Positions 8,071 to 49,699 of a stretch of DNA of 64,000 nt are shown here, piece by piece (the stretch's first letter is position 1; every line of letters begins with the position of its first letter). Under the pieces are notes generated by a model. That model was not told where the DNA came from and made no database searches. It saw only the letters and a list, made by a program, of their open reading frames with translations. The stretch is taken from NCBI GenBank assembly GCA_965140415.1, contig OZ223209.1, positions 3,648,001 through 3,712,000 on the forward strand. The letters run 5' to 3'. This DNA is from Myxococcota bacterium. GTDB lineage: Bacteria; Myxococcota_A; SURF-8. Position numbers and translations under genes: made by a program.

Positions 8071-8246
8071 TGCTTTCCTATTTTTATGATAGGTTTACTT
8101 GCCACCCATTCTAAGATGGGATATTCATTTAAGATCTTGAGCTAGGAAAGCATCCGAGTCAAACGGATCTTTCTTGCTAGTATGTCATTCCGATCAGAAC
8201 GTCAGTAACTCCTAAAGATGGCAAGGAGTAGATTAAGGAACAACAC

Positions 8247-8783
8247 ATGTCGATAATCAGTTTCGGTGAATACAACGAAGAATTAGGCTACAAAGTACTT
8301 GATGAGCGGGTGATGCGTGGCAGCGCCGGAATCATGTTGTTACTAGGCGCTATTGCTTCCATCAATGGGTTCATTTTAAAGAATTACTTTGTCATTCCAT
8401 ACTTCACAGGCTTTCTTGCATTGAATTTCCTTGTTGGAATCTTTATCAATCCTAAGTTTTCACCAACAGTGGTAATCGCAAAGTTGTTGGTCAGAAAGCA
8501 AAGTCCTTTACCTATCGGTGCGGTTCAAAAAAGGTTCGCCTGGAGCCTTGGACTGGGGCTGTCACTAGCGATTTTTTCCATGTCCTTCCCATTGTTAACC
8601 GATTCAACCTGGTTCGAACCGGTTTGCATGTTATGCCTGATTTGTCTCCTCTTTCTTTATCTTGAAAGCGCTTTCGGCATCTGCGTTGGTTGTCAGTTGT
8701 ATTTTCTGGCTATACGTTTAAAGCTGATTCAAGCGCCCACAGTCACTCCGAATTGCATGGGCAATTCCTGTGAAGTGGATTGA
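8247..8783 (+). CDS. DUF4395-family membrane protein
   Basis: DERVMR at the N-terminus, QKRFAW, LESAFGICVGC motif, four TM helices. Confidence 0.8.
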   Translation: MSIISFGEYNEELGYKVLDERVMRGSAGIMLLLGAIASINGFILKNYFVIPYFTGFLALNFLVGIFINPKFSPTVVIAKLLVRKQSPLPIGAVQKRFAWSLGLGLSLAIFSMSFPLLTDSTWFEPVCMLCLICLLFLYLESAFGICVGCQLYFLAIRLKLIQAPTVTPNCMGNSCEVD

Positions 8784-8984
8784 ACAAAAAGTGCTGTTCT
8801 TTCTAAATCAATGGAAGCGACTCGACGAAAAAACAACGCCGATTAATAGCAACCTATGCGATGGAATTTTGTATAGGAAAATCAAGCCACACACAAAGTA
8901 ACTCGCGACAAGACAGACCAATCCCAATCTGCGCGCAGAAACCAGAATAATTCTATTGATCAAGGAATTCTAAAATATCTGTCT

Positions 8985-9590
8985 TTACGTGCGGCGTCGC
9001 CGAATGGATAGCCAGATCAGAAGCAAGCCACCAATGATAATGGCCCCCAGTTGCTCCCAGGAACTCTGCAACGCGATTCCCGAGCAACCAGAGCCACCTT
9101 CGATGTAAGCGGTAGGATCCGCCTGGCAACACCCTTTCATACAAAGTTGGGTATCTGTGCAGTCATTGTCTAGCAGACAGGCGATGCAGCACTCGTTGCC
9201 AACACAAGCTTCTTCCGGCTTGCAATCGATATCCAGGACGCACATTTCGCGGATGCACTCGCTCGCGGAACTGCAAATGAAATCGGCGTACTGGCAATCT
9301 GCATTGTTGTTGCAGCTTTCCGGAACACAAAAGTCTTCCCCACCGACACCGCTTTCCTTGCGACAAAACTGCCCCTGTTCGCAATCCTCAAAGGATTGAC
9401 ACAAGGTTCTTGTTATTGTGCCGGCTTCTGCCTCATTATCATCACCGTCAACCGAAACCGCATCCATTTCAGCATCCAACACATCTTCAGCATCCAACAC
9501 ATCTGCGTCTTGAGCCAGTGCCATATTCGGTAACGTGAGTATCATCCAACAACTGATCACCGTGAAAAAGGCTACTTCAACTTGCCTCAT
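8985..9590 (-). CDS. Secreted Cys-rich protein with MYXO-CTERM-like tail
   Basis: Signal peptide ending ALA-Q; DVLDAE tandem duplication; four C-x-x-x-x-D-C modules; GGSGCSG + TM helix + RRRR. Confidence 0.75.
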   Translation of the reverse strand: MRQVEVAFFTVISCWMILTLPNMALAQDADVLDAEDVLDAEMDAVSVDGDDNEAEAGTITRTLCQSFEDCEQGQFCRKESGVGGEDFCVPESCNNNADCQYADFICSSASECIREMCVLDIDCKPEEACVGNECCIACLLDNDCTDTQLCMKGCCQADPTAYIEGGSGCSGIALQSSWEQLGAIIIGGLLLIWLSIRRRRT

Positions 9591-9888
9591 TCTGAATTAC
9601 TCCTGAAATTTACGTAAGGGACAAAACGATGGCCAACCATACCCGAGGTTCAAGCAGGATGTCAAGCGCTTTAGTGACAACGGTTTGGCATGACTAACAT
9701 TCAGCAACATTATACATCAAGGCAATAACAATATCTCACCATTTTTGCTTTGATGGCAAGTTGCATCTGTTCTCACAAGGTCTCATCGCTATCCCCGTAC
9801 AAGTCCGTGGTATTCTTCAAGGACCGTATAAATGCAGCAGCAATAGCCCAGCCACTGAATCCCTGCATGCGTTCTGTCACGGCCTTCA

Positions 9889-10581
9889 TCAGGCTTCTTC
9901 CTGTACAACAGGTGAGTCTTTATGCCATATCACAGACCAGGAGCGGGACTCCGCAACACGCTGGAGAATCGGAGTCGGCTCTACCGCCACGGGATGCCCG
10001 ACCCGTTCCAAAATCGACAGATCGGAATGATGATCACCATACGCATAACTTGCAGACAAATCCAAACCCTCTTGCTTCGCGAGCTCAAGGGCGTAATCTC
10101 CTTTGTGGACACCGATGCAGGGAGGCCCCTGACTGCGCCCCGTTAACAGACCGTCTGAACCCATTTCCAATTCCGTGCATAACAGGTGATCAAACGCTAG
10201 ATCATTCATGACGGGAAGAAGGATATATCGCGGCGAAGCAGACAGAATCACCAGTCGATGTCCCTGCTCTCTGTGCCACTCTACCTTTTGCATGACCGGT
10301 GGAGAAAGCATCGGCTGAATAAGCAATTTGTAATAAGAATCGATGTTAGCTTCGAATTCGGACAACGGGCGATTGCGGTAAACCTGTAGCACAACCTCCG
10401 CCATACGGTCGGAAGAAATCAAGTTGTGCTTAAAGAGCTTGTTCAACAAACCTGTTTTCAATAGGAAAGGAACAGAGATCTCACCACGAGCCCACAAAAA
10501 TTTCAGGCCAACCTCTGCACCGTCCTTTATCAATAATGTATTATCGAAATCGAAAAAGGCGGCGATGTTGCTTGCCCCCAT
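9889..10581 (-). CDS. HAD-superfamily subfamily IB hydrolase
   Basis: Motif I FFDFDNTL, motif II ILSAS, conserved Lys, motif IV YGDHHSD. Confidence 0.9.
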   Translation of the reverse strand: MGASNIAAFFDFDNTLLIKDGAEVGLKFLWARGEISVPFLLKTGLLNKLFKHNLISSDRMAEVVLQVYRNRPLSEFEANIDSYYKLLIQPMLSPPVMQKVEWHREQGHRLVILSASPRYILLPVMNDLAFDHLLCTELEMGSDGLLTGRSQGPPCIGVHKGDYALELAKQEGLDLSASYAYGDHHSDLSILERVGHPVAVEPTPILQRVAESRSWSVIWHKDSPVVQEEA

Positions 10582-10616
10582 AAATACCTCCGATTGGCTG
10601 TCGGGATTCTGTCAAA

Positions 10617-11402
10617 TCAGGCTTGCTTGCTGACCTGTTTATTCAAACTTGCAAGCCGTTCGGAAAGATTCTTGGCGATATCCACCAATGCAGTGGGATT
10701 GCTTCTCGCCAAGCCCTGGAAATCCTCTCCGGCAAATGCCATGACTTCACACACCGTCTGGGCTCGCACTGTTGCTGTACGCGACTGGCCGGTCAGACGA
10801 CTCATTTCACCGAAAATCTCGCTCTCACCGATCTCACCCACTTTCCGACCTGCGACAATCACATCCGCACGACCGGAGATCATCGAATAAACGTCCGTAT
10901 CCGTATCTCCTTCACGAATGATATCGGCACCTTCTGTGTAGGTCATCACCTGGAAATTAGGTCTGTGCAAGCTAGCCATGCTGGCTTCGATCACCAGTTG
11001 ATACAAAGCATTTTGTACCGCGAAATATTCCATCAGTAGAAGGAATCGATTACTGTCTTTTCGAATTTTCTTAAAGCTTTTGTCCCGATCGAAAATATCC
11101 GCTCTCACTGCAAATTCTAACGGACAGGAAATAATACTGGCATTCACACAGTTTTCCAGGCCAATCAATTCCTCTGGTTCATAGTAGAAAAGCGGATGAT
11201 CTCCCAGCTGCGCGGTAACGTTTCCGTCGGTCAGCCGGTAGAAACGGTTATCTGCGGCTTCCGGTCCTGCCAACAGCACATCTTTTTCAATCAATGCATT
11301 CTCATCAAGAGGCTTCAATCCATCCACAAGATCACTTACCAGATCTTTCAGTCGCTTGTTCAACGAATCGAAGCGCTCATCAACATTGACATTGGTATAC
11401 AT
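10617..11402 (-). CDS. Cyclic-nucleotide-binding protein (degenerate plus canonical cNMP domains, no HTH)
   Basis: C-terminal IIREGD...FGEMS...RTATV cassette; N-terminal half resembles a decayed cNMP barrel (FYRLTDG...ELIGLE). Start at ATG 11402 after GAGGAGG. Confidence 0.85.
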   Translation of the reverse strand: MYTNVNVDERFDSLNKRLKDLVSDLVDGLKPLDENALIEKDVLLAGPEAADNRFYRLTDGNVTAQLGDHPLFYYEPEELIGLENCVNASIISCPLEFAVRADIFDRDKSFKKIRKDSNRFLLLMEYFAVQNALYQLVIEASMASLHRPNFQVMTYTEGADIIREGDTDTDVYSMISGRADVIVAGRKVGEIGESEIFGEMSRLTGQSRTATVRAQTVCEVMAFAGEDFQGLARSNPTALVDIAKNLSERLASLNKQVSKQA

Positions 11403-35294: not shown

Positions 35295-36389
35295 CTAATG
35301 GCGTCGTCCACGGATATTTTGCACTAATTTCTCGATGTTCATGCGTCCGCGCACGCGCACTTTCCTGATATTATTGAAGATCTGGTTTAAATGACCTAGA
35401 TCCGGCGAAACGACACGCTCGCCTCTCGTATTGTTCAGATCGAATACACCTAGATCTTTGTAATAAACCGGAGCCATTTTCAACAACTCATCCGTGGATA
35501 GCTCATCGAAGCTGGTCACGAAACGGCTCTCCGGTTCCCATTCAAGGATGTAAAGAGACTCCAGCGTTCCAAAAAGTTGCGTGGAATGTTCGCCGTAAAT
35601 GCGATCCACATCGACCTGCACGCTTTCATCCAGCGCCCATAACTCACTTGGTCCCAATTGCCGATAGCGCGTCTGCTTGCCGATACTCAACGAGGACATA
35701 ATCCGATCGTGATGCAGCACGCTGCCTGGATGTACTCTGGGATGCAACGGGTACCCGATCGCCTGCACCAGATCGTCGCGAGAGCGAACCATCAACCGGT
35801 CGAAAGCCGTGAGTTTGAACTTTCGTTCGATCAGATCGAACAAGATCGTCCCCGAAGTTCCTGTGTTGGGCATGGATGCCAGCGAAATGACGTTGTCACC
35901 ATCGCTGATCGCCGCCACATTCAGCAGCAGATAGCCACGACCCGCCAGATACATGCGGGCGAATACAACGTTTAAAAACAATGCAACCTGGTGAATATTC
36001 TCGCGAATATCGCCCACCATAATATGGTTTACACCATCGATATACGCTTCGATACCGTATTTCTTCTTGCGAACCAAACGCCCTTCGAACAGGTCGATGA
36101 ATTCTTCTTTTATCTTCCGCCCGCTTTTACTGCGTACGAAATCCCGCATCTCGTACGAACTTCTGAATCCCGGGATATGGAGCAGATGTACCACCTGAAA
36201 CGCCTCTCCCGAAGCGTCGTCCTCTTCGACATAGCAACGGTGATACTCCCTTACCCGGTCAATCAACAAACGGTCATTGCTGCGGATTTCCAGAATCACG
36301 TTACGAAAGCGCAAGCGCAGGCGAGCGGCTTCATCATCGAAAACCGATTCCGGCAAATTCAGTAGTGATCTGATATGTTCGACAGTCAC
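35295..36389 (-). CDS. HprK-related kinase B-like protein with degenerate P-loop
   Basis: Family-like segments (KIKEEFIDL...RLVRK, PRVHPGSVLH, ELWAL); Walker A region reads SMPNTGTSG. Confidence 0.6.
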   Translation of the reverse strand: MTVEHIRSLLNLPESVFDDEAARLRLRFRNVILEIRSNDRLLIDRVREYHRCYVEEDDASGEAFQVVHLLHIPGFRSSYEMRDFVRSKSGRKIKEEFIDLFEGRLVRKKKYGIEAYIDGVNHIMVGDIRENIHQVALFLNVVFARMYLAGRGYLLLNVAAISDGDNVISLASMPNTGTSGTILFDLIERKFKLTAFDRLMVRSRDDLVQAIGYPLHPRVHPGSVLHHDRIMSSLSIGKQTRYRQLGPSELWALDESVQVDVDRIYGEHSTQLFGTLESLYILEWEPESRFVTSFDELSTDELLKMAPVYYKDLGVFDLNNTRGERVVSPDLGHLNQIFNNIRKVRVRGRMNIEKLVQNIRGRRH

Positions 36390-36498: not shown

Positions 36499-37149
36499 TC
36501 AATTAAGAATTCCTAGCCAATCCCCCATAATGAAGGTCATACGTCCCACCAGCAAGGAAACACGAGCCATAACGGTATATCCAAATGCCGCACCGAAAGA
36601 GATCATTAAAAACCAGATTCCAACTCGCGCCACCTTTCCTGTTGCACCCTTATGCTCCTTGGAAAAGAAGAAATATACCAGCGCGGAAAGCATCCCCAGC
36701 ACCATGACGCTGTTATTGATCGACTGGCTCCAGTCTAGGTGACGTGCGCCCTCTTCCGTGGAAAACACAAGCAAAGGCAAGATGGTTGCAGCAATCTGAT
36801 TGAGCAGGTTTTCCTTCAAGAAGTTTATGAAGAATATACCGGAATACGTTCCTATTACAAAGGAAATTGAGTATCGACTCACCCAGCCTACCTTGGGGAA
36901 CAATCGCAGCAGCATGAACAAACCAAGCACGGCGGGAATGAGATAAATCGTTTGACCGGCTTGTAAATTGTTTACCAGTTTCGGAACGATGACGTTCCAG
37001 ATCTGCATACAGAACAGATATCCCGCCGAAACGCCGACGAACAGGGATTCGCTGAATTTATAAAAAGGATTGTCCTTATACAAGAACGACCAGATACCCA
37101 GCGTCAATAGCGCCCCGATCCAGATACTGAGATCCGTGCTTATCGCCAT
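36499..37149 (-). CDS. Conserved hypothetical polytopic membrane protein (GlmL-linked operon)
   Basis: About 6-7 TM helices; SFLYKDNPFY and FGAAFGYTVMAR motifs; start overlaps the upstream stop. Confidence 0.85.
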   Translation of the reverse strand: MAISTDLSIWIGALLTLGIWSFLYKDNPFYKFSESLFVGVSAGYLFCMQIWNVIVPKLVNNLQAGQTIYLIPAVLGLFMLLRLFPKVGWVSRYSISFVIGTYSGIFFINFLKENLLNQIAATILPLLVFSTEEGARHLDWSQSINNSVMVLGMLSALVYFFFSKEHKGATGKVARVGIWFLMISFGAAFGYTVMARVSLLVGRMTFIMGDWLGILN

Positions 37150-38033
37150 GACGTTCCTCCTTTCCCGGAACGCCGTCGACTGACGAAATAAGCAACATTG
37201 CCGATGATGATAAACAACATAATCACCACATGCGCCGCCGCCTGGGCCGGCATGAATTCCAAAGCCTGACCCGTCGTCAAATCCAATCCAAGTAGCGCCT
37301 CGTAATCGGCAGCACCTTTCAATCCTCCCAAAAAGCCGACGATCTGCCCAGCCCCTAAATAGGGATAGGCTTCCGCCGCCATTACGGCGGTGCTGGCCGC
37401 TAAAACCCGGTAGTCAGGATTCACCGGCTTGGCGAACATCACCCAGGCCGAGGCAATGGGCGAACCACTCAAGCCACCAGAGGCAAACTCAACGGAAATG
37501 GCGACATCTTCGAAATTGTGAACCCGTTGCATCAAAGCCAACTCACCCAGCGGTGTTCCATACATATCATTTGGAAAGGTCTCGTGAATATCCCGATTCA
37601 TTCCCCGAACCACAAGCATGAACCCGGACATATACCCCAAATGCACGTAATCCTTACCATATGTCAGCTTCATTTCCGCAAATTCAGGTTCGTTCAACAC
37701 ATCTCGCATCGCGCGATCCAATAACGCCGGAGCCTGCGGCCACAGCGCTAAGGTCACGACTTTCGCTTTGCGCCGGAAGGCATGGCGAATCGTCGCCTTG
37801 ACCATCGGCTGAATCTCCGGCGAGGTAGACGGGTCATAAACTCCAGCCAGTGTAACCACTTGGCCGGCCTCCAGTTTTTCCATCTCATCGAAATAAGAGC
37901 GGGAAAAATGACCCGGCTTGATCGGCAGTGGGAACTTGAAAAGCAGAGTCAGCGCCACCGTCAGCCCCATAATCAAGAAGATCACGCGCCGATCGATCGA
38001 CAAAACACGCCTGGCGAAGAGTTGAAGTTTCAT
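37140..38033 (-). CDS. Conserved hypothetical membrane protein (TM, soluble alpha/beta domain, TM)
   Basis: ATG at 38033 shares TGATG with the upstream stop; IDRRVIF, YGKDYVHLGY, GGLKGAADYE. Confidence 0.85.
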   Translation of the reverse strand: MKLQLFARRVLSIDRRVIFLIMGLTVALTLLFKFPLPIKPGHFSRSYFDEMEKLEAGQVVTLAGVYDPSTSPEIQPMVKATIRHAFRRKAKVVTLALWPQAPALLDRAMRDVLNEPEFAEMKLTYGKDYVHLGYMSGFMLVVRGMNRDIHETFPNDMYGTPLGELALMQRVHNFEDVAISVEFASGGLSGSPIASAWVMFAKPVNPDYRVLAASTAVMAAEAYPYLGAGQIVGFLGGLKGAADYEALLGLDLTTGQALEFMPAQAAAHVVIMLFIIIGNVAYFVSRRRSGKGGTSWR

Positions 38034-39532
38034 CAATCTCCTCCTCCCAGGTAGCCGCGTTCCATTCCGAGAATGATTTTCAGCGCCGTGGATACCACAC
38101 CAAAAGCCACACCGATCATAATCGCTCGCTGGCTTGCCATATTGGGATACATCATGATCCAATCTGCCAAATCGGACATCTGCCAGGCTTCCGGTAGCCA
38201 GGAAGTCAAGTAATTTCCAACAGGTACCTGACCAAGCATGACGATGAATCCCGCCGCCAATAATAATGCCGCTTCTTTGGAACGCGCTCGAAAAGCTCGA
38301 AAAGCCGCCGAGGCGATAAAGAAGGCCAATAAAGCAAACATAGTTGAAGATAATGGTGCGTAAATATTATGGAATATCCACTGAAACCCGCTTCCGGAAT
38401 CCAATGGCTTTACGTCCAGCAATACGGCTTTGGAACCCGCTCCGAAAATTGCTTCCAATGCTGCGGTCTTCGTACGCGCGTGAAAAGCATCTTTTGCACC
38501 GTAACTGGCTGCCAATCGTGCCACTTCTTGGCCGATCGAACTGATTTTGCCGCTTTCCGGAGAAAAGATCGATTCCGAGTAGGAATGATTCGAGAAAACC
38601 TTTTGAATTTCATCTTCTTTCGCTGCGTTTCCTGTTTGCATTTTACGGCTATACAACTCGCGAACGCTACGCTGCAAGATCGAAAGCAAAATCAATTCGC
38701 TAACAGAATCCAGTGTAATTATCTGGTCATTATATGGCACGCTGCCGGGCAGCAAAGGAGAAACTGCAACCCGGGCGGATGACTTCAACGACTCCGAAAC
38801 TTCCAGCAAATTCATCGTTTCCAGTTCACTCTTAACCTGTTTCACAAACAGAGTGTTGCCCACCAGAACATCCTGCAATTGTCTTGCATATTCAACGACT
38901 TCACGTCCTAAAGGGGTAGCACTGTCGATCAGTTCCCCAGCTTCTCGTTTCGTTTGATCCAGCAATTTTTCAAAGCGTTCCCGTGTTAGGGGCACCTCCG
39001 AGAAAATTGCAGAAAAGCGCTCCGGTACAATTCGATTGTACCGAATCAGTCCATCGATATCCGCACGACGCACCGTATTTCGTCCCAAAACCTCCTCATC
39101 CGGCACCATGCCCGGATTTTGGATTTTGGTGAAAACCATGGCCGTCAATTCTATTTGCGAAGCAGGCAACGTCGTTTCCCGCTGAAGTACATCCTGCCCG
39201 GCGATTCGAATTAACTGTTCGTTATTACCAAGTATTTTTGTTCGCAAAGCCACTTGTTCACCGGGATTGAGCAGACCGAAAGTGATGGTCACAAGGAAAC
39301 CAAGCACCGTGATTGCAGAATATCCCCAGCCTGCGGTTTGCCGGGAAATCTTTTTTACATTCATGTAAAACAAGTTCAGAATTCCAAGAATCATTGTAAA
39401 GACGAAGACGATCAAGGCAAAATCGTTCAAGGTCCGATCCAGTTCATTGAACGGCGGATGCGGAATAAACGCCTGTAGAATCAAGAAGATTCCCATCACG
39501 GCGGTAATAATAAGCGGAATTTCCTTACGCAT
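38033..39532 (-). CDS. Conserved hypothetical membrane protein with a large soluble insertion
   Basis: 3 N-terminal TMs, about 290 aa soluble helical region, then TMFALLAFFIASAAFRAFRARS and 3 more TMs; CAGGAG RBS. Confidence 0.85.
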   Translation of the reverse strand: MRKEIPLIITAVMGIFLILQAFIPHPPFNELDRTLNDFALIVFVFTMILGILNLFYMNVKKISRQTAGWGYSAITVLGFLVTITFGLLNPGEQVALRTKILGNNEQLIRIAGQDVLQRETTLPASQIELTAMVFTKIQNPGMVPDEEVLGRNTVRRADIDGLIRYNRIVPERFSAIFSEVPLTRERFEKLLDQTKREAGELIDSATPLGREVVEYARQLQDVLVGNTLFVKQVKSELETMNLLEVSESLKSSARVAVSPLLPGSVPYNDQIITLDSVSELILLSILQRSVRELYSRKMQTGNAAKEDEIQKVFSNHSYSESIFSPESGKISSIGQEVARLAASYGAKDAFHARTKTAALEAIFGAGSKAVLLDVKPLDSGSGFQWIFHNIYAPLSSTMFALLAFFIASAAFRAFRARSKEAALLLAAGFIVMLGQVPVGNYLTSWLPEAWQMSDLADWIMMYPNMASQRAIMIGVAFGVVSTALKIILGMERGYLGGGD

Positions 39533-39553
39533 CGAATCTCCTGAAACCGAAAT

Positions 39554-40825
39554 TTAATTGGCGACGTGAAAAATCTGGCGCAATGTTTCTGTTAAAAGCG
39601 GCCACTCGCCAATTTCAGCAACCGTCGCCAAAATCACGGCAACGGAAACAGATAAAATCACCAGCAACTTGCCGTAATCCTGCCCCTTCAAACTTCCCAA
39701 CATCTTGGGTTCTTTAGATAAATACGCCGAAGCGGCGAACAATTCCTCGCCGATCAGGGTGTAGTCGCAGGCAGTAATGAAAAACGGCAATTGCGTTACC
39801 ATGGCAGTTCCGGCAATTTGAATCGCCCCGACGGAATGCCCCGTTTCTGCAAGAATCAACGATTCCGCATAAAACGAGCCCTGGTAAAAGATCGTTGCCG
39901 GGCGTTCGCGAATGATGATGCCATCCACCGCCGCCGCAAATCCGAACTGATCGTCGGTAATGTAATGAACCATTTCATCGCGAAAATCCAAGGAATGTCC
40001 GGTGGCCAAATAGGCTTCGCGCACGATCTCCCGCCCAGCCACCATTGCCATGGAACGCGCCACAGGCACATCGATTTCTGTTTGGTAGCGCGACGTATAG
40101 CGCCCTACCCGCCCTAAAATCGTTAGCCCGGCGATGGTTTGCGGATCATCGACATCCATGATACCAGGAATGAACATGACCTTGCGCCCCGTCTCGGCAG
40201 CACGCCCGACCGCTTCGTCGATGACTTCCAGTCCGTTGATACGCCGGATAAACAAGTCCCGGCCTTTGGAAGCCAGACGAATAAAGAACAAGATCAATGC
40301 CGTTACGATAATGGCGGCAATCAACAGGTTCAAACGCTGAAAATTGAACCAGCTTGCAGTTGCGGTAACCGGACCAATCCAGTCGGAATCTCGGTAACGG
40401 CTTCCGGAGTAAGAACGCACCAGGTATACGGCGGACCGCTCGCCGATGGAGTCGATAAACTGGCTTTCCGGCAGATAGGAAACACTTTGGAGAAGCCGAA
40501 AATCCGCTAAAGTGATTGATTTTGCCTGTGTTTTAAATGCCCGCCAAATTTCGACCTTATCGACGATCTCATTCAGCCGTTCCAACTCTTCCGCTCGATA
40601 AAACCGCCCGCCGAGCATCCATTTCATCGAGACCAGCACGTCACCACCGGAATCGTTCGGTTGATCCGTCACGCTTAAAACAGGAATTGGAAGCCCCTGA
40701 TCCACAACCGGAGTTCGTACTGGCGGTAATTCATCCGAAGCGTTAACAAGCCCAGGAAATCCCAACAGGCAAAGCAGAAACGCCATCCAAATCGGGGTTA
40801 ATATGTAAAACCGTTTTACCATCAC
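39554..40825 (-). CDS. DUF6754-type membrane protein with an extracytoplasmic beta-sandwich N-domain
   Basis: Signal peptide, DQPNDSG motif, TM, IRRINGLEVIDEAVGRAAETGR, YTLIGEELFAASAYL, C-terminal TM. Confidence 0.75.
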   Translation of the reverse strand: MMVKRFYILTPIWMAFLLCLLGFPGLVNASDELPPVRTPVVDQGLPIPVLSVTDQPNDSGGDVLVSMKWMLGGRFYRAEELERLNEIVDKVEIWRAFKTQAKSITLADFRLLQSVSYLPESQFIDSIGERSAVYLVRSYSGSRYRDSDWIGPVTATASWFNFQRLNLLIAAIIVTALILFFIRLASKGRDLFIRRINGLEVIDEAVGRAAETGRKVMFIPGIMDVDDPQTIAGLTILGRVGRYTSRYQTEIDVPVARSMAMVAGREIVREAYLATGHSLDFRDEMVHYITDDQFGFAAAVDGIIIRERPATIFYQGSFYAESLILAETGHSVGAIQIAGTAMVTQLPFFITACDYTLIGEELFAASAYLSKEPKMLGSLKGQDYGKLLVILSVSVAVILATVAEIGEWPLLTETLRQIFHVAN

Positions 40826-40829
40826 GCGT

Positions 40830-41966
40830 TTATAGGCTTTCTATAACTTCCACGTTCGCACGTGGCACCATCACCAGGTTTCCGTCTGCAAATTCGACTT
40901 GCAACACACGCACCATCGTTCCACTCTGCTGTTGCATCAGCACCTGAGGCAAAGCGCACACCGTTCCGATCTGGCCGAAATACGGGCTTCGAATGCAACG
41001 CACCATGGAACCGACATCCAATCCCAATTGCGTTTGCACTTTGTCGGCTGGATGTAAAGCTGTATCCAAACTTTCCCCCAGCGGGATAATGACTTCAGGC
41101 CGCAGAACTCCCGCTCGAATTTGGGTGGTCCCGTTGATTGAAGCCCGCTCGGTTTCGTGCTCTTTTAATAATCGGAAGGTCTTCGAGGCCATCTCGATCT
41201 GGCCGAACCCTTCCGTCACGATGACCGTCAGACCGATGTCCTCGTTCCCTGTAATCGCCACACCGAGATCGTAGCCGAGATAATCCCGTAAGTCGCGATC
41301 ATCGATGCCGCCCACCACAATGCCGGAAACACCGACTTCCTCAGCACGCCGGATCGCTTGCGCGGTCACTAGGGAGCCTCCGACGATGATACAGCCTTTA
41401 TGCTCCTCTTTAATCAGCGACGCCTCCAGCACATCGCCGGGAGAAGAAGCCAGCACGCACAGCGCGCCATACGCTTCACCGCCGATACCGAAAATTCCTT
41501 GAATAAAAGCCACTTCGCAACGAACCGTCACGCCATGTTCCGAAATGATTTCCGTGACAAGACCCGGTAGATAGGCTTTTACTTCAACCGGCAAAGGTTT
41601 ACCGCGCAAGATCACCTGCCCTGTCACCGTACTGATATTTTCAATCGTTGCAGTTTTCGGAGAATCGATCTTGGATTTGAACAAACCGAAAAAGGAAGAT
41701 GCCTGGGCCAGTCGCTCACCTTTTTGGACTAAATCGCCTGGTTTGTGCAGCATTGCTCCAGTAACTTCTCCCGGACCAATCCCCAATGCAGTGGCAATAT
41801 TCACCGGGTAAACGTCTCCCGGCAATTCCGTTTTCGCCACAACCTGCTCGGCGCCAACCCGATCCCCTTCTTGAACCAGCACCTCTCCCGCAATAGGAAG
41901 GATGCGCTTTTTGGTTAGTGGCATTCGCCCCGCCACTTTCAATCCCGGTGTATACGAACGACTCAT
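40830..41966 (-). CDS. Conserved hypothetical soluble protein with barrel-sandwich-hybrid repeats and a KOW-like C-terminus
   Basis: YTPGL; GEVLVQEGDRV and KPGDLVQKGERLA; IQGIFGIGGE; VTEGFG; TQIRAGVLRPEVIIP; VRCIRSPYFGQIG. Confidence 0.8.
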   Translation of the reverse strand: MSRSYTPGLKVAGRMPLTKKRILPIAGEVLVQEGDRVGAEQVVAKTELPGDVYPVNIATALGIGPGEVTGAMLHKPGDLVQKGERLAQASSFFGLFKSKIDSPKTATIENISTVTGQVILRGKPLPVEVKAYLPGLVTEIISEHGVTVRCEVAFIQGIFGIGGEAYGALCVLASSPGDVLEASLIKEEHKGCIIVGGSLVTAQAIRRAEEVGVSGIVVGGIDDRDLRDYLGYDLGVAITGNEDIGLTVIVTEGFGQIEMASKTFRLLKEHETERASINGTTQIRAGVLRPEVIIPLGESLDTALHPADKVQTQLGLDVGSMVRCIRSPYFGQIGTVCALPQVLMQQQSGTMVRVLQVEFADGNLVMVPRANVEVIESL

Positions 41967-43825
41967 ACTACCTCCCGGGAATGTTGCATGGAACGAGACA
42001 CTGCCTCATCACGCTTCGGATAGACTCCTAAAGCATCATTCCACTTCTCCAGGCACTGAACCCATTCCGCACCGGGTTCAGCCGGGACAAAGGGTCTGCC
42101 TCGTCCGTCCAGGATCAAACCGACTTCACCACCTCGCACCTGCTGCCGACTCTTCTTTCCTGCACCAGCCCCAACATCGAATCCGCGCGCCGGTTCAATC
42201 TCCACGACAGCCGTTTCCTCCACTCCCAAAGGAATGACTTTCAGATCCCCAGCGTAAAGTTCCAGCGTGTGGTTTTCTTCCTTTGACGTCTGGACCTGAA
42301 CCCGCATGATCGATTTACCCGGCTTTGCCACTCCTACCGGAGCAATGCAGGTTCCCAGGTAAATCATGCAATCCTTTTCGAAAACTTCCGTCGCCGCACG
42401 CGGATGCAGCACGGACAGCACTCCCAAATGCGGCATCATGAAAATGGAATCGACTGCCAAGGTGGTCACGCCTTCCGGCTGGTAGGCATCCAGCAGCATC
42501 ATCGCAGTTTGCTGACGACGTGGGGCGTGTGACAAAACCCCGCCGGAACCAACGATTAAATCCAGGGCCATCATATCGACAATGGATTCTTCGCTATCGG
42601 TGTCGAAGGCATCGGCAATAGTGCGCTGTTGCTGCACACCTTTAAGCTTGGTGGCAAATTGACGGTGCTGCACGAAAGCCAATCGAAGCGCCTCTTTTGC
42701 GACAGCCTGCTCCAAAATCAAATCGTCCAGAAGTTGTGGGATGGTTGTTGGGCGGATCATCTTGTTTTTAATGGCGTTTCTGAGCTCCCGCTCATCGATG
42801 GCAAAGGGAACCCAGCGCAACACATGATCCAGACCGGCTTCCTTAAACACATTGGCAATGGAATAGCTCATTCCCAGATTAGCGGAAACCGTCCGGTTGA
42901 ATTCTCCCGAAAACACGGAAAATACATCCGTCGTCGCGCCTCCGATATCCACTCCCACCACATTGATGGCTTTCTCTTTGGCAATTGCCTGAACGATCAA
43001 CCCGACCGCGGCAGGTGTGGGCATAATGGGAGAATCCGTCCAGGTCATAAGCTTTTTATACCCCGGAGCCTGCTGCATGACGTGTTCCATGAACAAGTCA
43101 TGAATTTTTTCCCGAGTGGGCGAAAGATTTTCCTGCTCCAGACTGGGACGCAGATTCTCCACCACATCCAGATCGGCCTTTTCAGCAAGCAATTCAGACA
43201 CTTCAGTTCTGGCTTGTTTGGTTCCGGCATAGATTACCGGCAATTGATAGGTCGAGCCCAGACGCGGTTTCGGATCGGCAGCGGAAATCAACTCCGCCAA
43301 GGAAACCACATGTTCGATGCGTTCGGCATCATCGGTCATTCCCGCCAGAACGATCATATCCGGTCTCAAACGACGAATTCTTTCGATCTGCTGATAAGGC
43401 AAACGGTTGTCGTTACAGGAAATGGTGTCCATCACGATGGCACCGGCTCCCAATGCAGCACGTTCGGCGGATTCCGCCGTCATGCTCCGCACAACTCCCG
43501 CCACCATCATCTGTAGCCCCCCACCCGCTGAACTGGTGGAAATATACACATCGCAGCCAATTGGAGCCCCATCCTTTTCAGCCGGTCGAATGATGTTTCC
43601 CTGTTCGTCGAGTAACCGGCGACCGGATAATTCTTCCAACTCCTGAAAAGCGTTAATCACGCCACGCGTAACATCCTCTATCGGAGCTTCGACGGTCGTA
43701 GGCGCTTCACCTCGAAACGTTTGACGATATTCGTTTCCTATTCTTTCAAACAGGATCGCTTTGGTGGTTGTACTGCCACAATCGGTGGCGACAATCACCC
43801 GGATATCCTCGGGATTAATCGCCAT
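41963..43825 (-). CDS. GlmL/MutL (glutamate mutase L)-family ASKHA ATPase
   Basis: Phosphate-1 TDCGSTTTK, SSAGGGL, phosphate-2 VDIGGATTDVFS, GSGGVLSHAP. Start set at ATG 43825. Confidence 0.88.
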   Translation of the reverse strand: MAINPEDIRVIVATDCGSTTTKAILFERIGNEYRQTFRGEAPTTVEAPIEDVTRGVINAFQELEELSGRRLLDEQGNIIRPAEKDGAPIGCDVYISTSSAGGGLQMMVAGVVRSMTAESAERAALGAGAIVMDTISCNDNRLPYQQIERIRRLRPDMIVLAGMTDDAERIEHVVSLAELISAADPKPRLGSTYQLPVIYAGTKQARTEVSELLAEKADLDVVENLRPSLEQENLSPTREKIHDLFMEHVMQQAPGYKKLMTWTDSPIMPTPAAVGLIVQAIAKEKAINVVGVDIGGATTDVFSVFSGEFNRTVSANLGMSYSIANVFKEAGLDHVLRWVPFAIDERELRNAIKNKMIRPTTIPQLLDDLILEQAVAKEALRLAFVQHRQFATKLKGVQQQRTIADAFDTDSEESIVDMMALDLIVGSGGVLSHAPRRQQTAMMLLDAYQPEGVTTLAVDSIFMMPHLGVLSVLHPRAATEVFEKDCMIYLGTCIAPVGVAKPGKSIMRVQVQTSKEENHTLELYAGDLKVIPLGVEETAVVEIEPARGFDVGAGAGKKSRQQVRGGEVGLILDGRGRPFVPAEPGAEWVQCLEKWNDALGVYPKRDEAVSRSMQHSREVV

Positions 43826-44195
43826 ATTGCATTGCCTTTTCCGATTCACCCTGTTCCAAACATTCTATCTCGTGAATAAGCTGCTCCAGATTCCGACGAT
43901 CACTTAATAATTCCGATAGGTTATCGAACGATTCGCTTTCGAAAACAGATTTGTACAAAGGCGCGATGACATGCATAACTTGATTGCCGATCGGACTGAC
44001 AGGTCGCACGCTTTCAAGCAGCAGAACGGCTGGGGCGCTCATTTGACGAGCGACGATCTCCTTTGCCAGCCGTCGCAGGAACTCATCCGTTTTCCGTTCT
44101 ATTGCAAGATCTTGCTCCGGCTCCACTTGAAAAGCATGCCTGAACCAGGCAAGCAGCGATCTCCCACTCTTCTTATGCTGCCCAAACTGACGCAC
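43815..44195 (-). CDS. Conserved small hypothetical protein, first gene of the GlmL-linked operon
   Basis: GGAGG RBS + GTG; PAVLLLESVRP motif; stop overlaps the GlmL-like start. Confidence 0.75.
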   Translation of the reverse strand: MRQFGQHKKSGRSLLAWFRHAFQVEPEQDLAIERKTDEFLRRLAKEIVARQMSAPAVLLLESVRPVSPIGNQVMHVIAPLYKSVFESESFDNLSELLSDRRNLEQLIHEIECLEQGESEKAMQYGD

Positions 44196-44305
44196 CGTCT
44201 GTTTCCCTCCCGAATCACCTGTTTACAAGACGAAGAACTGGTTTCAACCTTGTTGAATAAGCCAACAGTGTACTCAAGATCAGGCAATAAATCCAACCTT
44301 ATCCA

Positions 44306-44345
44306 ATAAAAACGCCCGGTCCATCGTTTGATGGTAACCGGGCGT
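44306..44345 (-). terminator. Rho-independent terminator after the wHTH gene
   Basis: Minus strand ACGCCCGGT-TACCATCAAACGATGG-ACCGGGCGT followed by TTTTATT. Confidence 0.75.
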
Positions 44346-44388: not shown

Positions 44389-45033
44389 TTATCCTTTTTT
44401 GGACTTGCGAGTCGCTTTCTTTTCCGGTCCCAGAATATCCGCTAACGCCAAGCCTTTGATTTTAGCGTAACTACGCTCGAAACGCTTGCGCGCCGCAACA
44501 CTGGAGAAATACTTTCCTTTCAAATCGGCTTCGGCAACAACTTCACCACTGCTCGGATATCCAAAGCGTGTTTCCAGCGAAGAGCTGATTTGCTCCAGAA
44601 CTTCTTTCTCCGGGAAGGATTTTTTCTGATCTGCAACAATCACGAACTTCACGGATTCGCCGGTGCGCTTGTATTCCAAATTCCAGAATACGGAAATGAC
44701 ATGGGAGCTGTGCGCCTTCAAAGGCTTGGTAATCAACTGAGCAGCTTCCTTGGCCAATCCTCGTTCGGTTTCAAACACGGGTTCCAGAAGCTCCCAAATC
44801 ACGCGATGATCCCGGTTAATGGTATAGGAGTATGCACGTCCTACAGCCTTGCGGAACAGGGCCTTGTTTTTCACCAGGCTATCCAGCGAAAGCTGGCAGG
44901 AACGCGGTGAAATATTAGCTAATGAGGCGATGCGGCGACCTGTCATGGCATCGTCCGATTCGTACAATACTCTCAAGATTTCAACTTTAGAAGTTGTTCC
45001 CAACAAGTAATTTAACATTTTGCTTTGAGTCAT
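44389..45033 (-). CDS. Winged-helix DNA-binding protein fused to a degenerate minimal nucleotidyltransferase-like domain
   Basis: KVEILRVL...TGRRIASLANIS...LDSL...VGRAYSY wHTH; C-domain has MNT-like strand order but no GS/DxD; AAGGAG RBS. Confidence 0.7.
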   Translation of the reverse strand: MTQSKMLNYLLGTTSKVEILRVLYESDDAMTGRRIASLANISPRSCQLSLDSLVKNKALFRKAVGRAYSYTINRDHRVIWELLEPVFETERGLAKEAAQLITKPLKAHSSHVISVFWNLEYKRTGESVKFVIVADQKKSFPEKEVLEQISSSLETRFGYPSSGEVVAEADLKGKYFSSVAARKRFERSYAKIKGLALADILGPEKKATRKSKKG

Positions 45034-45894: not shown

Positions 45895-48522
45895 CTATTC
45901 AATCTCCTGAGATTCAGCGGCATCGACATCAAGTTCGATCTCGACATCTCCGTCTACGTCACCATCAACGTCACCGTCAACATCCCCATCCACGACCGGA
46001 GTTTCACAGGTTGTGGCTTCCCACTCTCCAAATGCCTCGACAGCCTGTAGAACGGTACCCTTTTCTCCTGCAAAATAAACCTGATCGGGGCTGCGTCCCC
46101 AGATTTCGTTCAGACGCAAGGAGACTCCTGTATCTACTTTCTCGAAACAGAGGCCATCGCCGGACCAATACAGATTCCCTTGATCCGAAACGATGAAGAT
46201 GTGATTTTCGTCTGTACCCCAGACCTTCAAGAAGCTCTCCTCGGCAACGGCTCCAGCCACGGACAGTTTCAGGAAGTGATTCCCATCGTAGAGCCATGCA
46301 CCGGCGTGATCCCCGACGAAATAGACAGCATCGTTATCTTCGCCCCATACCGCATTGAGCGCCCCGACATCGGCACCGGAGGAGAAATCATCGAAATCGA
46401 TGAATTCCCAGCTATAGGTATCGGCATCGCCTCCACCCGGCGGCAATCGATGAGCGGCAATCCCTTCATTGCCGACAACCCAAACATTGCTGAAACTCGA
46501 CGCCCACACGCCATTCCAGGTGTTCATGTCATTCTGTACAAGTTCTGGGAAATTGACTTTGTCATTGCCGGGCGAGAAGTAGAAAGCCATCTCTTCACCT
46601 ACGGCAAACATCGTATCGTCGTTGAGACCGTATGCATCCCGAATGATACCGGTAAACAATGAGCTTTCAAAAGCGGTCAGGATCGGTCCGGCTCCACCCC
46701 AAACCCGAACTTCATGACTGAAGAAATAGACCTGGCCGGTGCTGACGATCCAGATGTCACCAATTGGATAAACACCCAAATTTTCATCATCCAAGTTGTC
46801 CAGATATTGCCAGGTGCTGTTAGCGGAATTGTCAGTATCCAAATAGTAAACGTCGCCATTAACGCTGGTTTTGTACAGAACCGGACCACGTCCCCATAGA
46901 GCTTCGACGTCACTTGGAGCGCCGGAAGCATCTTTACGAGAAGCCTGCTTATTGATTTGCGTCCAGGTTCCAAGATGCGGATTGAATCCCCACACCACAC
47001 CATAATCTCCTACCGCCACGGCGATACCATCTTCAGTAACATCCACCCCGTACAACGTGTCCTGAGCAGGCGCATCCGGCAAACGCTTCCAAATATGATT
47101 TTCCAGGAATTCTGGGGCATTTTCCACGACGCCACCTATATAGACCGGGTTCTCACCCTCTACCAGGCGATATGCAGCGCCTCCTTCTCCAACCGCGAAA
47201 ATCATGTCACCACGCCCGGCAACGGCATAGAAGGTTGGTGAAGAAGTATCATCCTGCGGGTCTCCCATGAATTGAGAAAAATCCCACCAGGAAACATTGT
47301 CGTAATAACTGATGGTTTTGCTCGATCCAACTGCGATCACGTGTTCTTCATCCAGTCCCCACACACCATACAGGTTTTCATTGTTCTGACAGGCCGGATC
47401 GAGAATGTTAAACGTATACTGATCGGTCGATTTCAGCGCCTTACAGTTGTCACCGACAACCATGTAAGTCGTATCGGCGATACCCCACATTGCGTTCAAT
47501 GTTTCAGCAGTTCCGGTACGACGCTTGTTCCAATCGATCAGGTACTGATACAAAACGCCTAATTCACCTACCGCATAGAAATTCGCACCATCGGAATAGG
47601 CTCCGAAGAAATCCAACCCTGCCGTGCCAGCCGCTCCAAAGTTCGCCTTATCGACCGCACTCCATTCGTCATTTTCAAGCTTCAGCACCGTCGCATCGTT
47701 TCCTGCCGCATACACCAGGCTGTCATCCACACCGTGAATGCCATTCATACGCGGCAATGTCGAAGACATCTGCCCCTCCGAAAACGACTCAAGATCGAAC
47801 ATGGTTCGTAGTCCATTGTCTCCTGAAATCCATAAACTGGAATCCGGGCTCCACCATGCCCCGGTCAATCGATGGCCGGTCGGCCAAGGGCTGTTCCAGC
47901 AAATGGAATCCGAAGAACAGATATTCCCCAGGAAACTGTCACCGAAAATGAAAGGCGGAACGGCGTCTTCCTCTATCTCCGCTTCCATTTCCTGATCCGG
48001 TTCGATTTCGGCATCCATATCGCCGTCGATGACGATGTCTCCCTCAAGATCGCCATCCACATCACCATCCATATCGCCGCCATCGCCATCCTCATCGCCG
48101 TCGACTTCCACCTCGCTCACTTCTCCGTCGAGATCTCCATCTTCCACATCACCGTCGATGATCGTATCTCCATCCGGCTCCTCAACACACTTGCCTTCGG
48201 CAACACAGATCGGAGAATCAAACAGCTCGCAGCATACCAGGTCATCGCTGTCACAAGTCTTTCCGGCATTGCAAGGCTCGTTTTCACCACCGGTTGGACC
48301 ATAGCATTCCGTTTCGGTGATGCACGTGAGTGTATCCGGGCAACAAATGATATGACGGTCAGGATCATCCTGGAACAGGCCGGAATCCTGGCAGAGGTAG
48401 TTTTTATTACAGGATTGTCCTTCTTTACCCACACCGTCATTCATGCAAGCTGTCATGGGAAGCAGCAATGTAAAAGCAGCAGTCAGGCCAAGCAACCATT
48501 TTATCATCAGGGAAGTCCGCAC
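45895..48522 (-). CDS. Large lipoprotein with Cys-rich N-domain, DGD linkers and VWG-type beta-propeller repeats
   Basis: Lipobox MTAC; more than 10 L-x-(G/A)-(V/I)-W-G...(A/F)VG-x-x-G repeats; DGD tracts at both ends; GTG start at 48522 after AAGGAA. Confidence 0.8.
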   Translation of the reverse strand: MRTSLMIKWLLGLTAAFTLLLPMTACMNDGVGKEGQSCNKNYLCQDSGLFQDDPDRHIICCPDTLTCITETECYGPTGGENEPCNAGKTCDSDDLVCCELFDSPICVAEGKCVEEPDGDTIIDGDVEDGDLDGEVSEVEVDGDEDGDGGDMDGDVDGDLEGDIVIDGDMDAEIEPDQEMEAEIEEDAVPPFIFGDSFLGNICSSDSICWNSPWPTGHRLTGAWWSPDSSLWISGDNGLRTMFDLESFSEGQMSSTLPRMNGIHGVDDSLVYAAGNDATVLKLENDEWSAVDKANFGAAGTAGLDFFGAYSDGANFYAVGELGVLYQYLIDWNKRRTGTAETLNAMWGIADTTYMVVGDNCKALKSTDQYTFNILDPACQNNENLYGVWGLDEEHVIAVGSSKTISYYDNVSWWDFSQFMGDPQDDTSSPTFYAVAGRGDMIFAVGEGGAAYRLVEGENPVYIGGVVENAPEFLENHIWKRLPDAPAQDTLYGVDVTEDGIAVAVGDYGVVWGFNPHLGTWTQINKQASRKDASGAPSDVEALWGRGPVLYKTSVNGDVYYLDTDNSANSTWQYLDNLDDENLGVYPIGDIWIVSTGQVYFFSHEVRVWGGAGPILTAFESSLFTGIIRDAYGLNDDTMFAVGEEMAFYFSPGNDKVNFPELVQNDMNTWNGVWASSFSNVWVVGNEGIAAHRLPPGGGDADTYSWEFIDFDDFSSGADVGALNAVWGEDNDAVYFVGDHAGAWLYDGNHFLKLSVAGAVAEESFLKVWGTDENHIFIVSDQGNLYWSGDGLCFEKVDTGVSLRLNEIWGRSPDQVYFAGEKGTVLQAVEAFGEWEATTCETPVVDGDVDGDVDGDVDGDVEIELDVDAAESQEIE

Positions 48523-48565
48523 GGTCCGTTCCTTTCGTTCTTCCTTGGATTTTCTCGTAGGAAAG

Positions 48566-49699
48566 TTAAAACTCCACATCAGCTTTTAGCAGGACACCAT
48601 CATCGGTAATACCGATACCACCGCCCGCGCCGATATTCTTCGCATTCTGCCAGTCCACGATAAACAGGATTACAGAGGTCAGCAATAACGCCCCTCCGGT
48701 TCCGTACATGGCATTGGAGGTAATCATGTACGTTCTGCTTTTATCGTTGTAATCTTTTAGCTCTGGGATGGAAGCAGCCTTATCCGCATTGGATTGTTCC
48801 TTGTTCGATAAATACCCGAACACCAGCCCCAAACCCTCCGCGACGACCCCGGTTGCCAACGTAGTCCAGGCGGCAATACCAACACCGGGATTCCGTTCCA
48901 GCTGCGGTTGTGGCAAGTCTTCGTACAGCAGAGCCATATCATCCGAGTTCGAAGGCGACGTCATCAATACGGGAACTTCGGTAATCAATCCCAATTCAAT
49001 CAACGACTTATGATACTCTTGCTGCCCGACTTCCGCCAAACGTTCCATACTGGTCTGGGTAACCAGTATCTCCTTTAAAACTCGTCGATTCGGCAAATCG
49101 ATAATTCGGACAAAAAGAGTGAACTCCGCAAACATCTGCTCTTTGGGAGCGGCACCAATCGGATTGGTCCCCATCGATGGAGCCATTCCACCTTCAGTTA
49201 ATGTACTAGGATCAACCGCGCTCATCCGAACTTTTCCCGCGATCAGAATATCCAGACTGGCAGGCTTCAATGCAACCTGCAAACAACCGGGGTCCAACCA
49301 GCAGCGGTTATATAATACCAGTTCTCTGGGTCCCATGGTCTTGACGATTTCTTCATGGGGAATGACCGTATTATTAAAGGCGTTGATTTCCTTCGTTTCT
49401 TCAGTTACTGCGCGCGTAAGCAGTTCCCGTTTGGAGGCTTCGATTTTTTGCTCCACCTCAAACGTGGGACGCATCTCCAACACACCGATACGAAAAACTT
49501 TTTGATCGAGTTGCTCCGCTTTTTCCCGTGTCGGTCCCCGCTGCGCATCGTTTCCGGTTTGAACCGTATCCGCATCGTCAGAAGACATGGGAACGGTATC
49601 ATCATCATCGGATTGGGCGAAGCTGACTCCAGGCCAAGCCAACAAACAAACCGCCGTTAAAACCATGAGAACACTTCGATAATCAATCAGTCTCATCAT
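48566..49699 (-). CDS. Secreted hypothetical protein with a C-terminal hydrophobic hairpin (myxobacterial PEGA-associated type)
   Basis: Signal peptide (SFA-Q); CWLDPGC domain; AWTTLATG...SNAMYGTGGALLLTSVILF hairpin; ends in Phe. Start may be 49765. Confidence 0.65.
   Translation of the reverse strand: MMRLIDYRSVLMVLTAVCLLAWPGVSFAQSDDDDTVPMSSDDADTVQTGNDAQRGPTREKAEQLDQKVFRIGVLEMRPTFEVEQKIEASKRELLTRAVTEETKEINAFNNTVIPHEEIVKTMGPRELVLYNRCWLDPGCLQVALKPASLDILIAGKVRMSAVDPSTLTEGGMAPSMGTNPIGAAPKEQMFAEFTLFVRIIDLPNRRVLKEILVTQTSMERLAEVGQQEYHKSLIELGLITEVPVLMTSPSNSDDMALLYEDLPQPQLERNPGVGIAAWTTLATGVVAEGLGLVFGYLSNKEQSNADKAASIPELKDYNDKSRTYMITSNAMYGTGGALLLTSVILFIVDWQNAKNIGAGGGIGITDDGVLLKADVEF

Follow-up and report, generated by a model that had tools for sequence, protein, structure and literature searches.

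We analysed a 64,000-nucleotide stretch of the genome of a Myxococcota bacterium (GenBank assembly GCA_965140415.1, contig OZ223209.1, positions 3,648,001 to 3,712,000; hereafter the window), in which seven genes on the minus strand, here called g1 to g7, encode an actin-fold (ASKHA superfamily) ATPase together with two other soluble proteins and four membrane proteins. In the order of transcription these are g1 (43815-44195, 126 amino acids (aa)), a small soluble protein that falls in no known family; g2 (41963-43849, 628 aa), a long-form ATPase of the MutL/GlmL family; g3 (40830-41966, 378 aa), a soluble three-domain protein; g4 (39554-40825, 423 aa), a DUF6754 membrane protein; g5 (38033-39532, 499 aa), a membrane protein with 3+3 transmembrane (TM) helices; g6 (37140-38033), which probably starts at M44 of the longest open reading frame (ORF; 37140-38162, 340 aa) because its homologues align from that residue; and g7 (36499-37149, 216 aa), a membrane protein with about six TM helices. 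As the initial annotation had described, four of the junctions overlap (g1/g2; g2/g3 by 4 bp; g5/g6 by 1 bp with the M44 start; g6/g7 by 10 bp), and the ORF coordinates leave gaps of 4 bp between g3 and g4 and 21 bp between g4 and g5. The terminator proposed upstream of these genes was recovered between g1 and the preceding gene, 44 nt past the stop codon of the latter, as a strong intrinsic-terminator-like hairpin followed by a U-run (44304-44345, minus strand). It was found by folding, having not been flagged by a simple consensus terminator scan, and its centroid structure has a 14-bp interrupted stem followed by UUUUUAUU. Past g7, a promoter-like site at 36483-36454 (11 of 12 matches) is positioned for the next gene (35295-36389). 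Because of these junctions, the upstream hairpin and the downstream promoter-like site, g1 to g7 look like one transcription unit, and we treat them as a predicted operon.

The product of g2 matched the Pfam family MutL (PF13941) over model positions 1-450 with 410.3 bits (cut-off 27, E 1.3e-122). Its scores lay below the curated NCBIfam cut-offs for GlmL (NF040745, 213.3 bits against 475), for Or-4 (NF040744, 205 bits against 600) and for the GlmL subfamily TIGR01319 (152 bits against 204). The earlier label ‘GlmL-type’ therefore holds at the level of the Pfam family and fails at the level of the subfamily, since g2 is below all three NCBIfam cut-offs and belongs to a separate long-form clade. 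The phosphate-1 (DCGSTTTK) and phosphate-2 (DIGGATTD) motifs expected of an ASKHA ATPase are intact in g2, as had been claimed, and are conserved in 23 long-form sequences; residues G25, S26, T27, T29 and K30 of the former and D301, G303, G304, A305, T306, T307 and D308 of the latter were invariant in all 28 rows of an alignment of g2 with 22 long relatives and five short MutLs of the same phylum. The long form is set apart by two insertions (g2 residues ~80-105 and ~340-372) and by a C-terminal extension of about 120 aa (g2 residues ~505-628). Identity between g2 and the short MutLs of the phylum is 27-32%, and a quick tree separated the long from the short forms by a single split with a Shimodaira-Hasegawa-like approximate likelihood ratio test (SH-aLRT) value of 100. 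A Pfam scan of g2 at E ≤ 0.01 returned MutL and a weak Hydantoinase_A match, the adenosylcobalamin (AdoCbl) reactivase families being absent, and a search of solved structures with the g2 sequence alone gave nothing below E 0.01. In the same quick tree, the long MutLs of genomes titled Ignavibacteria and Zixiibacteriota (L072/L073) branch within those of the window's phylum, as sisters of the MutLs of genomes G230/G215 (SH-aLRT 96), which suggests inter-phylum transfer or very slow divergence.

GlmL proteins are named for glutamate mutase, and the initial annotation had stressed that the window contains neither a mutase subunit nor a B12-binding protein. Both statements stand: no match to Met_asp_mut_E (PF06368) was found in the whole 5.98-Mb genome (one contig, 93.7% complete), and all 30 of its matches to B12-binding domains, mostly in frames of 430-760 codons, lie outside the window. 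Among 401 genomes of the window's phylum, searched as one set for all three families, DUF6754 was present in 40, MutL above cut-off in 41 and GlmE above cut-off in one. Long MutL accompanied DUF6754 in 38 of the 40, often unlinked; DUF6754 occurred without MutL in G054 and in G376 (83% complete). Conversely, the three genomes with MutL and no DUF6754 (G068, G243 and G358) all have short forms of 446-480 codons. These short forms are found in glmS-glmL-glmE or oraS-oraE clusters and thus act as a positive control, showing that the phylum does have canonical GlmL contexts and that these are separate. The single genome with GlmE, G068, has a short MutL only, and none of the 38 genomes with long MutL had GlmE above cut-off. 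The long clade is consequently not tied to GlmE, which answers a doubt raised beforehand, and g2 is not a glutamate-mutase accessory factor.

The co-occurrence of MutL and DUF6754 repeats across families and phyla. In a second phylum, Candidatus Zixiibacteriota (genome G402), all 151 genomes contain DUF6754, with 2-10 matches each and mostly 5, and 149 of the 151 contain MutL, mostly one per genome. Five Zixiibacteriota genomes that were checked each gave 5 matches to g7 and 5-6 to g4. In G448, for example, three complete g4-g7 modules stand in tandem and another two at other places, and the single MutL-g3 pair is unlinked to them. At a single locus, one tandem array is preceded by two response regulators and a GAF histidine kinase. 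The g3 family comprises 1140 cluster representatives at E ≤ 1e-30, and homologues carry names such as Eremiobacterota, Armatimonadetes, Vulcanimicrobiota and Edwardsbacteria.

Gene order was compared over 20 kb around DUF6754 genes at 23 loci (L numbers), 20 of them in the window's phylum and 3 from other lineages. Synteny had been named beforehand as a refuting test for the grouping, and the order of the seven genes does recur in other genomes, so the association is beyond chance. Complete MutL-g3-g4-g5-g6-g7 runs are present at L036, L041, L045, L047-L051 and L035 (at L035 a contig end interrupts MutL), with g1 detected in most, and the 3.4-kb contig of L005 carries MutL-g3-g4-g5 up to its end. 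At L037, L038, L042, L052, L054, L003 and L004, g4-g7 are found without adjoining MutL and g3. Where MutL is apart from g4-g7, g3 is the next gene at 10 of 12 loci; of the others, the contig ends at L062, and in G244 g3 lies beside g4. Finally, g5-g6-g7 stand alone at L076-L078. From the unlinked MutL-g3 pairs, the separate g4-g7 runs and the lone g5-g6-g7 trios we conclude that the system consists of three units, namely MutL-g3 and g4, either of which may be headed by g1, and g5-g6-g7. The seven-gene operon first described is thus real in the window and elsewhere splits into three sub-operons. In G244, the only case seen of g3 accompanying g4 and not MutL, the long MutL is 13 kb from g3-g4-g5-g6-g7 and is spread over two frames near residue 467 (L063, G244:C14, 8946-10785), reflecting a frameshift or an assembly error. 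Clustering of the ORFs at the 23 loci revealed no further conserved partner, save a gene upstream of g1 at six loci and a permease gene at three related loci, both described below.

The partner of the ATPase, g3, had been described as a soluble protein with barrel-sandwich-hybrid and KOW-like parts. Both are present in an AlphaFold2 (AF2) model (predicted local distance difference test (pLDDT) 83), and between them is a swivelling beta/beta/alpha domain. Structural comparison with VIA-align matched residues 152-296 of the model to Enzyme I of the phosphotransferase system (PTS) (2wqd; Z 9.8, root-mean-square deviation 2.5 Å over 105 aligned residues), and further matches of the swivel domain at Z 8.2-8.5 were to rifampin phosphotransferase, the pyruvate kinase C-domain, aconitase X and RraA (among them 5hv1 at Z 8.5 and 2e28 at Z 8.3), so on the predicted model the swivel fold is assigned. 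Residues 315-378 matched KOW/NdhS/PsaE domains at Z 7.5-9. The N-terminal part resembled RnfC/NqrA at Z 7.2-7.6 (8ahx_C 7.6, 4u9o 7.2), a range that is common with this tool, and the score against the RnfC/NqrA family PF13375 was 20.6 bits, below the gathering cut-off of 25.6. PEP-utilizers (PF00391) gave no Pfam match to g3 and an hhalign probability of 0.2 with a 14-row PEP-utilizers alignment. Since no His occurs in any invariant or nearly invariant column of the g3 alignment, g3 is unlikely to be a phosphohistidine carrier. Foldseek of g3 against the PDB gave domain-level matches only (best E 1.6e-5, TM-score ≤ 0.23), and a profile search against solved structures gave nothing below E 0.01. 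MutL and g3 are fused in P0142 and P0207, where PF13941 precedes g3 (2 of the best 150 g3 representatives). In the second phylum, a second MutL match occurs in frames of 933-954 codons in G510:C204, G526:C32, G528:C146 and G420:C15, the size expected of such MutL-g3 fusions.

The membrane protein g4 matched DUF6754 (PF20539) with 371.5 bits (gathering cut-off 27, E 2.3e-111). It is composed of a signal or anchor segment, a variable periplasmic N-domain, a TM helix, a conserved Rossmann-like domain and a second TM helix, with three hydrophobic spans by hydropathy. The AF2 model of residues 150-423 (pLDDT 84.5) shows a Rossmann-like domain of parallel alpha/beta type that follows one TM helix and leads into a second, long one; we place the Rossmann-like domain in the cytoplasm because of the positive-inside pattern that we read from the sequence. 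The N-domains of g4 relatives are variously fn3, PQQ-like propeller, HEAT or RHS domains. In the conserved domain a single Cys and numerous charged residues are invariant; placed by eye on the secondary structure of the model, invariant residues sit at, or shortly beyond, the C-terminal ends of predicted strands. Its best VIA-align matches were Sir2 (Z 9.6), TrkA-N (9.0) and transhydrogenase dIII (8.7). Foldseek of g4 against the PDB returned nothing at E ≤ 0.001, a profile search against solved structures nothing below E 0.01, and the ESM Atlas DUF6754 clusters only. A cobalamin-binding domain in g4 is unsupported, as the 50 best VIA-align matches include no B12-binding chain and the sequence has no DxHxxG motif. 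Long forms of g4, among the best 120 of 451 rows, carry extracellular domains and no fusion to MutL or g3. In two families, copies of g4 without g5-g7 adjoin large thioredoxin-like proteins (L044:3471-5738, minus strand; L040:11458-13386, minus strand); at L044 this protein contains four PEGA domains, and the next gene encodes a radical SAM/SPASM protein. These neighbours may indicate a redox link or may be coincidence. Apart from the thioredoxin-like protein, the flanks of the orphan g4 copies and of the five G448 modules showed unrelated housekeeping genes in Pfam.

We also predicted a complex of MutL (residues 13-628), g1 and the cytoplasmic domain of g4, the last being the scored partner. 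The MutL-g4 interface score (ipSAE) was 0.39 (runs of 0.40, 0.39 and 0.38), and the best of three controls, which included replacement of MutL, scored 0.00; contact agreement between runs was at least 56% and the pLDDT of the partner at least 66. In the calibration of this score, 58 of 80 solved complexes passed the mark, as did 2 of 110 mismatched pairs, with values up to 0.60 accounting for 7 of the 80 solved complexes and for both passing mismatches; our set-up, with its own alignments and three chains, departs from that calibration. The initial annotation had asked whether interfaces would be predicted; one that depends on MutL was obtained, and the model lends weak support, which we count as a minor gain, to an interface between MutL and the cytoplasmic domain of g4.

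The four membrane proteins g4 to g7 have 3, 6, 2 and ~6 hydrophobic spans by hydropathy, in agreement with their first description as membrane proteins. At L004 these four proteins are compact, with about 980 aa between them. Of the g5-g6-g7 trio, g7 is always last. Homologues of g5 are usually ~215-300 aa long in the alignment; the greater length of g5 in the window reflects a ~280-aa insertion at residues ~93-377, in a predicted periplasmic loop between TM3 and TM4, which is shared only with its two closest relatives in the alignment. This insert scored 16.9 bits against the coiled-coil family CC149 (cut-off 30, E 0.004), and in three further genomes the site is occupied by a different insertion. 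The g6 protein has an N-terminal TM helix, a ~230-aa domain that looks alpha/beta and is predicted to be periplasmic, and a C-terminal TM helix; its alignment shows an invariant DRR ahead of TM1 and a DFDPxSxPE motif. None of g5, g6 and g7 had a match in Pfam (gathering cut-off), NCBIfam, PADLOC or PDB profile searches (E 0.01). For g6 the ESM Atlas yielded a single cluster, unnamed and scoring 0.76, which is too low to be useful, and no longer (fused) relatives of g6 were found, which by the tool's own account is weak evidence. Paralogy was considered for the soluble domains of g4 and g6 and for g5 and g7, and was rejected in both cases (hhalign probabilities of 1.3 and 0.2). Overall, the periplasmic parts of the system vary (the heads of g4 and the insertions in g5 and g7), and the cytoplasmic and TM parts are conserved. 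A permease gene that by eye is LolC/LolE-like (FtsX-type) follows g7 at the related loci L048, L049 and L053, and is duplicated at L049.

The small protein g1 had no Pfam or NCBIfam match, and a 17-row alignment showed a single conserved, fairly hydrophobic core, PAVLxLESxRPLxFxGSQ. The gene precedes MutL at L060 and L064-L066 and g4 at L042, L044 and L054. Because it adjoins MutL in some genomes and g4 in others, its product is a candidate adaptor. An additional gene, ‘g0’, lies just upstream of g1 at L036, L042, L045, L048, L049 and L054 (for example L045:14481-14981, minus strand) and encodes a protein of ~140-190 aa with two TM helices and a conserved C-terminal domain; two that were tested had no Pfam match, and in the window, where the position adjoining g1 was examined, there is none.

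Taken together, these data indicate that g1 to g7 very probably constitute a functionally coupled ATPase-membrane system that is unrelated to glutamate mutase. The proposal that the ATPase has been redeployed to a membrane complex is backed by the co-occurrence, the synteny and the weak predicted interface; that it would ‘drive or gate’ this complex is inferred. In the mechanism we propose, g2 and g3 would form a soluble cytoplasmic ATPase pair, g4, with its variable periplasmic head and membrane-held Rossmann-like domain, a second unit, and the polytopic trio g5-g6-g7 a third. Rossmann-like domains are the probable clients of related ASKHA reactivases. Binding and hydrolysis of ATP by g2, with g3, would likewise act on the Rossmann-like domain of g4 and would thereby take the g4-g7 membrane complex through a conformational cycle. 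Our preferred, still tentative, reading of its purpose is a novel type of transporter or translocase powered by ATP, in which a shared energiser serves several specific membrane modules. We favour a shared energiser because one ATPase pair is present per ~5 paralogous modules in two other lineages, and because the variable parts are periplasmic and the conserved parts cytoplasmic or in the membrane. In its most specific form, a new primary active membrane machine in which an ASKHA and swivel-domain pair docks on DUF6754 and powers several four-protein modules, the proposal is somewhat doubtful.

Several observations weigh against a transporter with a shared energiser. No subunit among g4-g7 resembles a known transporter, channel or enzyme in Pfam, NCBIfam, PADLOC or PDB profiles; no substrate, substrate-binding family or consistent metabolic neighbours were seen, the neighbours varying by locus; and the Rossmann match of g4 is generic, since sirtuins, RCK/KTN domains, transhydrogenase dIII and many other proteins all reach Z 8-9.6. 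The predicted complex scored weakly, and on the calibration a value of this size is more often wrong than right unless the pair is likely beforehand. Because related genomes are not independent, there were fewer independent events than the co-occurrence counts imply. A further objection comes from G054, a genome of the window's own family, which keeps full-length g4-g7 without g1, g3 and most of MutL. At its locus L043 (G054:C11), the gene upstream of the system is retained, a 68-codon MutL remnant (10698-10904) is 57% identical to g2 residues 9-60, and intact g4-g7 (6373-10697) follow directly; the rest of the genome (94% complete) yielded no MutL. The ATPase unit has thus been deleted naturally here, so that the membrane module may function, or at any rate be retained, in its absence.

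The deletion in G054 is more easily accommodated if the ATPase is an accessory factor than if it is an obligatory motor, and it fits better with the main alternative, which we regard as rather unlikely. MutL-g3 would here be an ATP-dependent chaperone, loader or reactivase of a membrane-bound enzyme or cofactor-bearing g4-g7 complex, opening the Rossmann-like domain of g4 for loading or exchange of a ligand and not powering every turnover. ASKHA proteins of the GlmL/DdrA type probably open B12 enzymes for ligand exchange, and the combination of an ASKHA protein with a swivel domain may resemble that of diol dehydratase reactivase. The short relatives of g2 adjoin B12-dependent mutases whose cofactor domain is Rossmann-like, and the invariant charged residues and Cys that by eye lie at or after the strand ends of g4 are placed as in ligand-binding Rossmann folds. 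The ratio of one ATPase pair to ~5 modules would suit a shared chaperone too, and the weak MutL-g4 interface (0.39, best control 0.00) fits equally well. However, none of the seven proteins has a DxHxxG motif or conserved Cys/His clusters, B12-binding domains are absent from the 50 best structural matches of g4, and no enzyme family in Pfam or NCBIfam matches g4-g7. A role in envelope sensing or scaffolding is improbable: g4 would be a receptor or anchor, and the ASKHA protein a switch or polymer for signalling, surface assembly or shape, as FtsA, PilM and MreB are ASKHA-type proteins that act as switch or polymer. Such a role would accord with the highly variable heads (fn3, PQQ-like propeller, HEAT, RHS) on a conserved cytoplasmic domain, and the response regulators and GAF histidine kinase upstream of one tandem array, seen at a single locus, would suit it. 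The ASKHA superfamily includes membrane-tethered cytoskeletal and assembly proteins (PMC5597319). Yet g2 belongs to the MutL/hydantoinase-like enzyme branch and not to a polymer-forming family, no signalling output domain was found in the system, and the g5-g6-g7 trio with its conserved TM parts would go unexplained. That g2 is an ordinary GlmL serving a B12 mutase encoded elsewhere, its membrane neighbours being incidental, is suggested by the family name, the Pfam match and the 30 B12-binding-domain matches in the genome. Against this, GlmE was not found in that genome or, above cut-off, in the 38 with long MutL, g2 scores below the NCBIfam cut-offs and belongs to a separate split, DUF6754 and MutL co-occur (38 of 40 genomes, and 151 and 149 of 151 in the second phylum), and the order g3-g7 is conserved. 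We consider this role nearly excluded and close to refuted.

Returning to the transporter or translocase that we prefer, we compared its parts with known systems. With GlmL (NF040745) and Or-4 (NF040744, of the D-ornithine aminomutase cluster), g2 shares the Pfam family over 450 positions and the DxGSTxTK and DxGGATTD motifs; unlike them, it has the two insertions, the ~120-aa extension, 27-32% identity to short forms and DUF6754 co-occurrence, and unlike GlmL, the long form is never accompanied by GlmE in the sampled genomes and usually has g3 as the next gene. The AdoCbl reactivases DdrAB/PduGH and EutA also combine an ASKHA protein, a swivelling domain and a Rossmann-like client; in our system g3 would supply the swivel as a chain of its own, and the putative client, g4, differs in being a membrane protein without a B12 motif; we take this possible resemblance as a lead. 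The phosphohistidine swivel of PTS Enzyme I shares its fold with g3 residues 152-296, which have no sequence relation to it and no invariant His. Group II energy-coupling factor (ECF) transporters, the general proteins of the PTS and multitask ATP-binding cassette (ABC) ATPases are likewise shared energisers of many membrane modules; unlike these, our system shows no sequence or fold relation to them, its ATPase is of the ASKHA type, and no substrate-binding family was recognised. The domain of g4 resembles RCK/KTN (TrkA, KtrA) and sirtuin/DHS-like Rossmann domains at Z 8.4-9.6, tied with many unrelated folds, and differs from RCK/KTN and sirtuins in lacking a GxGxxG motif and in sitting between two TM helices. 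Searches of curated families of transporters and secretion systems (ABC, ECF, PTS, tripartite ATP-independent periplasmic (TRAP), Sec, Tat and others) gave no sequence match in g4-g7 beyond DUF6754, and no anti-phage defence family in PADLOC-DB matched any of the 7 proteins. To our knowledge, no transporter driven by an actin-fold ATPase with a shared energiser is known.

The open full-text papers searched contained no description of such a system; PMC5167688 deals with an ordinary glutamate mutase and the DNA-repair MutL. We rate the architecture of the system as categorically new. If our reading is true, an actin-fold ATPase from the branch of the B12 reactivases has been recruited to a membrane complex that has no known transporter, secretion or respiratory relative. 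Nor is the system rare, given the 1140 g3 representatives and a DUF6754 family that is universal at ~5 copies in one uncultured phylum. Being universal and multi-copy in a phylum such as Zixiibacteriota, it probably plays a central part there, be it in ion homeostasis, the uptake of nutrients or the biogenesis of the envelope. Once its function is solved, thousands of genes now called ‘hypothetical’ could be annotated, and the long-form ATPase would lose the name ‘glutamate mutase accessory protein’, which is misleading.

The genes on either side of the operon are also encoded on the minus strand. The upstream gene (44389-45033, 214 aa) has a winged-helix-like N-terminus by eye and no match in Pfam or NCBIfam. 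A homologue with 64% identity precedes MutL-g3 at L055, and one with 55% identity precedes the MutL remnant and g4 at L043; because the gene thus precedes the system in two relatives as well, its product is a possible regulator. Downstream of g7, the gene at 35295-36389 scored 139 bits against HprK-related kinase B (TIGR04355, cut-off 200), and since it has its own promoter-like site it is probably outside the operon. Further upstream, 45895-48579 encodes an 894-aa protein with an N-terminal anchor and a Cys-rich stretch, in which long acidic repeats of the DGDVDGD type flank both ends of a repeat-rich core.

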